This document shows, piece after piece, positions 55,051 through 64,000 of a stretch of DNA of 64,000 nucleotides. Source of the DNA: a virus. The notes under the pieces were generated by a model, which was not told where the DNA came from, made no database searches, and worked only from the letters and a program-made list of their open reading frames with translations. The translations under genes and the position numbers were made by a program. The stretch lies in IMG/VR virus record IMGVR_UViG_3300044611_001420; one strand, given 5' to 3'. Positions within the stretch are counted from its first letter, which is position 1. Each line of letters opens with the position of its first letter.

Positions 55051-55057
55051 ATAAATA
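55050..55057 (+). promoter_or_regulatory. T4-type late promoter
   Basis: Exact TATAAATA upstream of the endonuclease. Confidence 0.7.
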
Positions 55058-55080
55058 ATAGTGTATAGTGTGTGTCCCTG

Positions 55081-55776
55081 ATGAAAAATACTTATTATAC
55101 TTATGCTTGGTTAAGAGAAGATAAGACCCCTTACTATGTTGGTAAAGGTATTGGTAATAGAGCATATCGTTCTCATAAAAGAGGCAATAAATATATGCCT
55201 TCTCCACCAAAAGATAGAATAATATTTTTAAAGAAAAATCTAACGGAGTTTGATGCATATAAGCACGAAAATTATATTATCACTATTTTGGGTTTAAAAA
55301 GTGAAGGTGGTTTATTGATTAATATGTCTTATGGTGGAGAAGGAAGTTCTGGAAGAAAACCTAGTGAATATTGTATTGAAAGAACTAAACAAGCAAATAT
55401 AGGGAAAACTCTTACCGAAGAACATAAGAAAAAGGTTTCGCAACAAGTATCTCAAAGGAGATGGTGGAATAATGGAGAAATAGACAAGCATACTATTGAA
55501 TGTCCTGGTGATGGATGGGTTCTTGGTAGATTATTTAATTCTAAAAGTGAGAAATACAAAACAAAAGATTTTGCTGAAAAGTCAAGAAGAACCAATTTGG
55601 GGAAAATTGTTAGTGATGAAACAAAAATGAAACAAAGTCAAAAAAGAAAAGGAAGAAAGTGGTGGAATAATGGAGATAAAACAAAGTTATGTTATGAATG
55701 TCCTGGTGATGGTTGGGTTCAAGGAAGACCTGGACCACTTTTCCAAGTGTCCATTCGGGAATCCCAAGAGCAGTAG
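55081..55776 (+). mobile_element. Free-standing GIY-YIG-like homing endonuclease with NUMOD3-like and duplicated WWNNG..CPGDGW..GR repeats
   Basis: YYTYAWLRED.TPYYVGKG..NR...E...L.N...GGEG; GKTLTEEHKKKVS; ATG at 55081. Confidence 0.8.
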
Positions 55777-62582: not shown

Positions 62583-62806
62583 GTGATTCTTATTGGTTTA
62601 ATAAAAAATGGGGTCTTAAACAGAATACTCCTATGGATGATGTTTATGAACGTTTAACTCAACTTGAAAATGAAGTCAACAAACTAAAAGAAGAAAATAT
62701 AGAATTGACAAATTCGTTGTATGAGGTTGAACACAGATTACAAGCAAAGATTGACAATATTCATCCAGTAACCTACAATTTAAGTAATTATACTCTAGAC
62801 AAATGA
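62579..62806 (+). CDS. Coiled-coil hypothetical protein
   Basis: Heptad segment [28 protein letters not shown]. Confidence 0.7.
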
Positions 62807-63093
62807 CTTTTAATGTAACTCTCCGTTCCGCTGACGGAACCGAACAAACTATTCAATGCCCCGAAGACCAATACATTCTTGATGCTGCCGAATACGCAGG
62901 CATCGACCTTCCTTCGTCCTGCCGTGCTGGTGCTTGCTCTGCTTGCGTTGGTAAAGTTGTGGAAGGTGAAGTGGATAATTCCGAACAATCCTTCCTTGAT
63001 GATGACCAAATGAATGAGGGGTTCTCTATGCTTTGTGTTGCATATCCTCTGAGCGATTGTGTGATTGAAACAGAGCAAGAGGAGAATCTCTGA
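62803..63093 (+). CDS. petF: Plant-type [2Fe-2S] ferredoxin (auxiliary metabolic gene)
   Basis: [24 protein letters not shown]...QSFLDDDQ...LCVAYP.SDC.I.T..EE.L. Confidence 0.95.
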
Positions 63094-63293
63094 TGTACAA
63101 TGACCTCACAGAATATGAACGGGCACTCGCACGATTTGGTGATAAAGTTGGACTCATTGCAGGACTTGAAATTGCAGATAAAATCTCACCAGAGGATGCT
63201 TATCAACAAATTCGTATCCTCTTTAAAGAACTTAAGAAACTTCGTAAAGTTGAAAAGAAATCTTGGGAATCTGATATTCATATTGATATGTGA
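63093..63293 (+). CDS. Small conserved-looking hypothetical protein
   Basis: L..FGDKV..I.GLE...KISPEDAYQQI..L.KELKK. Confidence 0.7.
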   Translation: MYNDLTEYERALARFGDKVGLIAGLEIADKISPEDAYQQIRILFKELKKLRKVEKKSWESDIHIDM

Positions 63294-63451
63294 TGGAAGA
63301 TACTCTAAAAATCACTCAAAATGAAGATGGGTCTTATACAGTAGATTGGTCTCCAGATGATCCCAAATGGAAGTTTATGAATAATCTTACTAGTAAAGAG
63401 GTGCAGATTATTATTGAGCAAGCGATTCAAGATTATCTTGCCAATAAATAA
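63293..63451 (+). CDS. 52-aa hypothetical protein, absent from ORF track
   Basis: TGATG-coupled; MEDTLKITQNEDGSYTVDWSPDDPKWKFMN... Confidence 0.65.
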   Translation: MEDTLKITQNEDGSYTVDWSPDDPKWKFMNNLTSKEVQIIIEQAIQDYLANK

Positions 63452-63453
63452 TA

Positions 63454-63512
63454 TTGCTTTTGTTTGTGGTTATTCAGAAGCAAAGAGTGGGAGCAGAAAT
63501 GCTCCTTTTCTT
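63454..63512 (+). ncRNA. Putative ~60-nt RNA or leader element complementary to the downstream nuclease 5' UTR
   Basis: AATAAATA (63443-63450); hairpin TTGCTTTTG/CAGAAGCAA; terminator GGAGCA-GAAA-TGCTCC-TTTTCTT; 63455-63470 complements 63527-63543. Confidence 0.5.
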
Positions 63513-63513
63513 G

Positions 63514-63521
63514 TATAAATA
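63514..63521 (+). promoter_or_regulatory. T4-type late promoter
   Basis: Exact TATAAATA. Confidence 0.75.
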
Positions 63522-63544
63522 CTATTACCACAAACAAAAAGCAG

Positions 63545-64000
63545 ATGGAATACTACACTTACGCTTATTTGCGTGAAGATGGCACACCTTATTATATTGG
63601 TAAGGGGAAGGGTAATAGAATGTATAAAAAAGGAAAGGGTGAAGTTTATCCACCAAAAAATAAAGGTAAAATAATTAAATTAAAACAAAATCTAACTGAA
63701 AAAGAGGCATTTAAGCACGAAAAGTATATGATTTCCGTGTTTGGTAGAAAGGATTTAGGGACTGGTATTTTAAGAAACAAAACTGGTGGTGGAGATGGAC
63801 CTTCTGGTTATATTATGAGTGAGGAGCAAAAAATGCTTTTAAGTAGGATACACTCTGGTAAAAATCTTACAGAAGAACATAGAAAAAAAATAAGTGAAGC
63901 AAATAAAAGACGAGATGCTGGAAAATATAAAAGAACTCCAGAAACTTTGTTAAAGATGAAAAATTCCAGAAAACTTATCAAGTATTACTTAAAACATAAG
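63545..64000 (+). mobile_element. Second GIY-YIG-like homing endonuclease (runs off the window)
   Basis: MEYYTYAYLREDGTPYYIGKG.GNR...EAFKHE...LRNKTGGGDG...GKNLTEEHRKKIS. Confidence 0.8.

Follow-up and report, generated by a model that had tools for sequence, protein, structure and literature searches.

Analysis of a 64,000-nucleotide stretch of viral DNA (the window; part of IMG/VR virus record IMGVR_UViG_3300044611_001420, whose length is 122,923 bases) revealed that the homing endonuclease gene starting at position 63545 is preceded by a cassette of approximately 105 bases, in which a late-type box (AATAAATA), a hairpin, a GAAA-loop terminator, an exact TATAAATA box and an 18-nt leader follow one another up to the ATG. 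With a probability that we put at roughly three in four, this cassette is a portable insulator combined with a translational mask, which would keep the nuclease silent except from one late promoter. The source phage is a T4-like cyanophage with relatives in the Kyanoviridae, as judged from the neighbouring genes and the related loci. All elements that an earlier note on this DNA had described from the letters alone were recovered in their places when positions 62800-64000 were read. The parts of the locus are as follows.

63290-63451, plus strand: open reading frame (ORF) of 53 aa (phrog_10020), with its TAA stop codon (63449-63451) inside the P1 box
63443-63450, plus strand: P1, late-promoter-like box AATAAATA, with which the inserted DNA begins and which overlaps the stop codon of the 53-aa ORF
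63456-63481, plus strand: hairpin 1, with a stem formed by 63456-63462 and 63475-63481 and a loop at 63463-63474
63456-63470, plus strand: anti-leader arm, the 5' arm of the long-range helix, defined by the fold and by complementarity to the leader
63456-63512, plus strand: predicted RNA1 of approximately 57 nt, running from the +1 predicted for P1 as far as the U-tract of the terminator and comprising a 5' hairpin and the terminator hairpin
63489-63512, plus strand: predicted intrinsic terminator, with stem 63489-63506, GAAA loop 63496-63499 and tail TTTTCTT
63514-63521, plus strand: P2, consensus late promoter box TATAAATA, located between both arms
63527-63544, plus strand: late mRNA leader of 18 nt, beginning with ACCAC; 63527 is the predicted +1 of P2, and 63527-63542 form the 3' arm
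63545-64000 and continuing beyond the window, plus strand: gene for a GIY-YIG/NUMOD3 Seg-like homing endonuclease, 198 codons, 152 of which are in the window

The predicted fold contains a long-range helix of 15 bp between 63456-63470 and 63527-63542, with a bulged A63540, which ends 2 nt before the AUG. An inverted-repeat search detected the same two segments as a 16-nt repeat at 94% (63455/56-63470 with 63527-63542/43). The complementarity of arm and leader with one bulge, as claimed in the earlier note, is real, although the helix in the fold comprises 15 bp and not 16. The minimum free energy fold of 63440-63570 consists of this long helix closed around the terminator hairpin and has a predicted energy of -35.9 kcal/mol. 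Shuffled versions of the same segment (n = 200) yielded -21.2 +/- 3.5 kcal/mol (z = -4.16), and none of the 200 was as stable. On the read-through RNA, the mean unpaired probability of 63527-63550 is 0.25, compared with 0.79 on the P2 mRNA.

To compare the cassette with its relatives, we used 80 related loci from a scan of viral contigs together with cultured phages and 3 further cassettes found in the flanks (individual loci are cited below by L numbers). This set contains 54 distinct cassettes, which all follow the same order of box, 5 nt, hairpin, terminator, box, 5 nt, leader and ATG. Cultured Synechococcus phages that carry the cassette include B3/B23, S-SRM01 and S-B68. The leaders fall into 22 different 12-mers, each with its own matching arm, and all 31 loci that have the exact leader also have the exact arm. 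In an alignment-free comparison, the arm-leader duplexes of cognate pairs had a mean energy of -19.9 kcal/mol (range -24.2 to -16.0), whereas non-cognate combinations reached only -8.8 +/- 4.3 kcal/mol. According to the T4 rule, by which +1 is the sixth base after the box, the duplex begins at leader base 1 in 49 of 51 cassettes, and a doubled box accounts for the artefactual deviation of the other two.

RNAalifold detected no structure in a plain MAFFT alignment (A2), which failed to bring arms belonging to different length classes into register. The problem was overcome by fitting a second alignment (A3) with a covariance model (R1) and by the alignment-free duplex energies. A3 leans to the model that was used to build it, but the alignment-free comparison agrees with it. 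In A3, 94.2% of the cells are paired and 21 of the 22 pairs have changed on both sides, including all 15 pairs of the long helix. The covariation score was 0.678, compared with 0.222 in shuffled alignments (0/500 as high) and with 0.135 or less when the partners were slid by 1-3 columns. The terminator stem in the related cassettes is similarly maintained (97% of the cells paired, double changes in 6 of 7 pairs). Co-variation of arm and leader across homologous loci, which the earlier note had proposed as a check, was thus found, with compensatory changes in 15/15 long-range pairs among the 22 leader types. The cassette of phage B3 provides one example. It has the same layout in front of a nuclease of 46% identity in another genomic context, and it differs from the window by three double changes in the long helix and one in the terminator stem, while the local hairpin is kept. 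Judged by these sequence comparisons, the pairing between arm and leader is under strong selection. The arrangement as a whole is far beyond chance, and 54 distinct cassettes repeat it with compensatory changes.

The mechanism that we favour on these grounds can be outlined in three steps. Transcription arriving from upstream, or begun at P1, would meet the terminator at 63489-63512, and the nuclease gene would thereby be insulated from its neighbours. In any transcript that leaks through, the arm (63456-63470) and the leader (63527-63542) would form the 15-bp helix and hide the ribosome-loading region. The P2 mRNA would have the first base of the 3' arm as its 5' end and no anti-leader, and ribosomes could translate it late in infection. 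What the sequences show is the elements themselves, their conservation, their mobility among genomic contexts and the compensatory evolution of both helices; the use of the promoters, the start sites, termination and the repression of translation are all predictions here. At the level of sequence, the locus has the features of a T4-type mask, namely a homing endonuclease gene, a predicted helix over its start region and a nested late promoter.

Sequestration of the ribosome-binding site by a structure with a nested late promoter is an established feature of I-TevI, I-TevII, I-TevIII, segB and Aeh1 mobE (PMC2988022), and the T4 I-TevI cis hairpin is described there as the earlier note stated it. 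The present locus resembles these T-even masks in belonging to a T4-like phage, in serving a homing endonuclease gene and in having a helix that would hide the start on transcripts begun upstream, and late transcripts, begun at its TATAAATA promoter, would likewise omit the 5' arm. It differs from them in four respects: the arms are 56 nt apart and the loop between them contains a complete intrinsic terminator; the 5' arm also contributes to a conserved local hairpin, as its stem and loop; this hairpin is preceded, at a distance of exactly 5 nt, by a second late-type box, which is invariant; and the cassette as a whole moves as one module, which comes in at least 22 arm-leader specificities. 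A second precedent comes from marine metagenomes. The available text of Dassa et al. 2009 (PMC2677866) describes TATAAATA-containing hairpins with two mutually complementary motifs upstream of endonuclease genes, at 'fractured gene' loci that encode GIY-YIG and Vsr-like endonucleases. Like the loci described in that text, the present one is environmental and probably cyanophage-like, with free-standing endonucleases and a late promoter element in a hairpin of the 5' untranslated region. The same text, as far as it is available, gives a translational hairpin only, with no terminator, second upstream box or separate RNA. Therefore, the core scheme is known, both from T4 and from marine endonucleases, and what is new is the terminator inside the mask, the invariant upstream TAAATA and the co-varying 5' hairpin at the predicted +1.

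The identity of the gene as a homing endonuclease, assumed in the earlier note, was borne out by homology. The complete ORF ends 141 nt past the window and corresponds to L001:1360-1956 (minus strand). Its 198-aa product has a GIY-YIG N-terminus (YTYAYL...YYIGKGKGNR), NUMOD3-like repeats and a C-terminal DNA-binding part. The protein matches phrog_314 ('homing endonuclease', E = 3e-15) and phrog_15526 (E = 2e-28), its N-terminal motif aligns with GIY-YIG proteins in the PDB (E = 0.003), and its tblastn matches are annotated as Seg-like or group I intron endonucleases. The NUMOD3 match is slightly below the Pfam cut-off. Compared with the window protein, the catalytic N-terminal 95 residues are 64-88% identical in all endonuclease ORFs of loci L007-L086, while the C-terminal DNA-binding parts are mostly unrelated, with 24-50% identity over short stretches. 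The cassette and the catalytic domain together are a constant module, to which exchanged targeting domains are attached.

The module is found in many places. The arm type of the window was identified on 37 contigs in 21 different upstream contexts. The same cassette also precedes a 247-aa HNH endonuclease (L058:2574-2674) and, directly after a tRNA gene, a second GIY-YIG family of 206 aa (L077:380-480). It is thus a control module common to different nuclease families.

An endonuclease-free allele in phage DSL-LC02 allowed the definition of the insertion site. In this phage, the homologue of the 53-aa ORF directly overlaps the next gene (L130:1100-1200). In the locus of the window, the original end of this ORF (MMEQAIEDFINGL*) persists after the nuclease stop codon and overlaps the start of the next gene (L001:1300-1362, minus strand), and a diverged duplicate of the ORF end (IIIEQAIQDYLA; …IIIEQAIQDYLANK*) precedes the cassette (window 63410-63451). 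The comparison with DSL-LC02 therefore indicates that the cassette was inserted at the 3' end of the ORF and that the inserted DNA begins at P1, which gives the new stop codon. The insertion resembles a target duplication of approximately 25-30 nt, and the homing site may lie in the segment EQAI(Q/E)D, which is present in both copies.

Several features of the cassette weigh against the view that it is only an insulator and cis mask. A pure cis mask needs neither an invariant upstream TAAATA box nor a hairpin 1 that co-varies and uses the same arm in competition with the long helix. The terminator is located inside the mask, after the anti-leader arm rather than before it, and because of this order most transcripts that carry the anti-leader would never reach the leader. 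In addition, the leader before the ATG (AAAAAGCAG) contains no clear Shine-Dalgarno sequence, and the masked target is assumed to be an A-rich standby or S1 site. The three new features named above together look like a separate small-RNA gene. We slightly favour the view, from the layout of the sequence, that the upstream half (P1, hairpin 1 and terminator) specifies a discrete RNA of approximately 55 nt. It shows the sequence marks of a transcription unit of its own that the earlier note had implied, with the GAAA-tetraloop terminator predicted between the two halves of the cassette.

The first of these marks is P1 itself. Its TAAATA hexamer is invariant in all 54 distinct cassettes and also in 37/37 loci chosen by arm sequence alone from the 21 upstream contexts, whereas the sequence varies in the dinucleotide that precedes it, in the 5-nt spacer and in the arms. 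The supply of a stop codon does not explain this conservation, as the stop of the upstream ORF lies outside the P1 box in at least 12 cassettes. The spacing between P1 and hairpin 1 is constant at 5 nt. In 54/54 cassettes, the base predicted as +1 of P1 is a purine, and it always occupies the first (or second) paired position of hairpin 1. Similar boxes, NATAAATA and NCTAAATA, are present 13-31 nt before tail-fibre, tail-fibre-assembly and virion-protein genes of the source phage, and NATAAATA is the late motif of cyanomyoviruses (PMC2984593). At L034:1340-1400, the strong UUCG-loop terminator of the upstream gene abuts a perfect TATAAATA first box; the anti-leader hairpin is therefore bracketed by two terminators, as a promoter-to-terminator unit. 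We also looked upstream of the cassettes for a divergent gene, which would leave P1 as the only promoter able to transcribe the arm, but the candidate minus-strand ORFs had no PHROG match.

The second mark is hairpin 1. Because its variable stems were poorly aligned by a separate covariance model (R2; 64% paired), it was judged from per-sequence folds and from energies after stem swaps, and the cognate stems (-5.7 kcal/mol) proved more stable than the non-cognate ones (-2.1 kcal/mol). Among cassettes of the window type, five variants of its 3' arm differ solely by A/G opposite U. On longer transcripts, hairpin 1 of the window extends to 9 pairs, one of them G-U (63454-63462 with 63475-63483). 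Its loop (63463-63474) holds the complement of leader bases 1-8, and the exposed seed of the earlier note was thus located, as 8 loop bases complementary to the 5' end of the mRNA. The predicted RNA1 of the window folds with -23.7 kcal/mol (RNAfold). Across the cassettes, the predicted RNA is 49-64 nt long (median 54) and adopts a two-hairpin fold in every case.

Such an RNA might act in trans, as the earlier note proposed under the label 'antitoxin-like'. According to this explanation, a cognate antisense RNA of approximately 55 nt, driven by P1 and encoded in tandem upstream of its target, pairs with the first 16 bases of the P2 mRNA and damps or thresholds its translation, in addition to the cis mask. 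On thermodynamics alone, the duplex of RNA1 and late mRNA is preferred by -10.6 kcal/mol (ddG), with the opening of hairpin 1 included, and the arm-before-terminator order means that the terminated product carries the anti-leader. The invariance of TAAATA, the fixed position of the predicted start, the co-varying hairpin, the late-type boxes before virion genes and the bracketed arm at L034 all point in the same direction. We nevertheless lean against trans action. The co-variation of arm and leader fits cis and trans pairing equally. P1 is mostly sub-consensus, reading TATAAATA in 6 of the 54 cassettes as opposed to 50 of 54 for P2, so that the antisense RNA may be a minority species. Both promoters are late-type, which would place the RNA in the very phase in which the nuclease is due.

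Variants and remnants of the cassette also argue against it. A mask without the first late box is present in loci L048/L051/L055/L059 and in phage Sf-CH5 (L091, upstream of 395). In the L048-type variant, an anti-leader (e.g. GTAGGGGTAT) lies within a large terminator-like hairpin that is followed by a TATAAATA box and a complementary leader, which indicates that cis masking alone is viable. Orphan copies were identified at L107 (arm at ~4627), L108, L112 and L124 and on the minus strand of L049 (262-367 of the reverse complement). These keep the first box, the hairpin and the terminator stem and are cut right after this stem, so that the U-tract, the second box, the leader and the nuclease are all missing. 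They are truncated remnants rather than maintained stand-alone genes and probably record the loss of an endonuclease. A structural scan for stand-alone P1-hairpin-terminator genes yielded 98 complete copies and no intact orphan, the exceptions being one copy cut by a contig end and one unrelated match that passed the filters.

The term 'antitoxin' is in any case a loose label, and two late-type boxes fit the damping of dosage better than the logic of an antidote. The most far-reaching form of the idea is that each cassette encodes a cognate antisense RNA from a dedicated late promoter which sets the dosage of the nuclease within a genome, the cassettes of cyanophage populations together forming a library of at least 22 orthogonal small-RNA/leader pairs. 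This form we consider slightly less likely than trans action as such.

The closest analogue of possible trans action would be the c4 antisense RNA of phages P1 and P7 from the immI operon, which is reportedly the subject of work by Citron and Schuster in 1992. c4 is a small structured RNA that lies upstream of its target in the same orientation and pairs through a loop with the ribosome-binding region downstream, and its specificity differs among related phages through matched changes in RNA and target. Unlike the RNA predicted here, for which a dedicated promoter and terminator can be drawn, c4 is processed from an operon transcript; it controls an antirepressor of a temperate phage and not a nuclease of a lytic one; and the two show no relation in sequence or in Rfam. 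Our scan against Rfam 15 returned only chance-level miRNA/sRNA matches on the opposite strand (15-18 bits, with cut-offs of 76-171). Type I toxin-antitoxin systems offer a looser analogy. In the pairs RalR/RalA, TisB/IstR-1 and ZorO/OrzO, a short complementarity to the toxin leader acts in trans. As in these pairs, approximately 16-20 nt would pair here between a small terminated RNA and the mRNA leader of a potentially harmful protein encoded next to it. Unlike here, where the two units are in tandem and both late-type, the antitoxin genes of those pairs are antisense or divergent and are constitutive.

No small RNA controlling a homing endonuclease was found in the literature searched. According to the available text of a 2025 review of phage small RNAs (PMC12197685), the only one tied to a cyanophage endonuclease is CfrI of cyanophage S-PM2 (Millard et al. 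2010, in PMC12197685), an antisense transcript of ~225 nt across the psbA/F-CphI junction. CfrI is, like the RNA considered here, a non-coding RNA of a T4-like cyanophage that is linked to a homing endonuclease gene. However, it is a true antisense RNA and not a co-oriented upstream RNA directed at the nuclease leader.

The cassette might also act at the level of DNA, either as a recombination or insertion cassette, comparable to the promoter-stem-loop cassettes that have been suggested as mediators of module shuffling among T4-type genomes, or as a set of operator sites bound by the nuclease, after the manner of I-TevI autorepression. Its presence in at least 21 contexts fits such a role, as do the remnants cut exactly after the terminator stem and the direct repeats of ~14 nt that P1 and P2 form with their spacers (e.g. 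TAAATA-NTAATGC, MVNP... subgroup). Furthermore, I-TevI binds an operator that overlaps its late promoter (PMC2988022). Nevertheless, we consider this explanation improbable. The compensatory changes in three separate helices indicate selection on the structure of RNA (or of single strands) and not on duplex DNA, the same boxes precede unrelated GIY-YIG and HNH families, which argues against a nuclease-specific operator, and the variable DNA-binding C-termini do not track the constant boxes.

Finally, type I systems with nuclease toxins do exist (RalR/RalA, SymE/SymR). A corresponding addiction module, in which a stable nuclease mRNA and a labile antisense RNA would make loss of the locus lethal to the cell, is very improbable here, as the resemblance is formal only (a nuclease gene, a structured RNA with ~16 nt of complementarity to its leader and a terminator between them), the element belongs to a lytic phage and has late-type boxes, homing explains the spread of a protein homologous to site-specific homing endonucleases, and the presence of same-family endonuclease genes without the cassette (L033, L039, L045, S-N03 and ACG-2014f) speaks against an obligatory antidote.

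A scan of the whole record of the source phage identified only one full cassette, that in front of the gene at 63545. The other endonuclease paralogues of this phage have a late box, or a terminator plus a box, and no anti-leader arm. The 231-aa GIY-YIG gene at window 55081 (region 55052-55776) lacks an anti-leader, although hairpin, terminator and TATAAATA box all precede it. Outside the window, a GIY-YIG paralogue of 183 aa has only a CCTAAATA box upstream, and a further HNH/NUMOD3 endonuclease gene is also present. The upstream neighbours of the locus are genes for a phage ferredoxin (petF-like; window 62803-63093) and a DUF7219 protein (63093-63293). The downstream neighbour (L001:848-1303, minus strand) encodes a 152-aa protein with a C-terminal MazE/AbrB-type (SpoVT) domain, which scored 24.1 bits against a Pfam cut-off of 24.7.

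Knowledge of the cassette also helps annotation. In several GenBank records the start codon has been put within the terminator, or the product is called 'translation initiation factor 2'. In MW015081 (S-SRM01), the coding sequence QPX48040 (L087:326-1027) starts at a GTG within the cassette terminator, with an ATG ~60 nt downstream, and this is likely to be an annotation error. The same probably applies to the endonucleases gp45 of MN695334/5 (B3, B23) and SfCH5_200 of PV340852 (Sf-CH5), which carry the factor name.

Homing endonucleases are abundant selfish genes of phage genomes, and their expression must stay low and late. In T4-like cyanophages, the region that controls them is itself a compact mobile module, which is found with both GIY-YIG and HNH enzymes and has evolved dozens of matched arm-leader specificities. 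Should the upstream half prove to be a genuine small RNA, it would be without known precedent as an antisense regulator of a homing endonuclease, and it would provide a natural set of orthogonal RNA repressors and a possible means of competition among co-infecting phages. If the cassettes indeed form a library of cognate antisense RNAs, a resident cassette could silence an incoming endonuclease of the same specificity in mixed infections.

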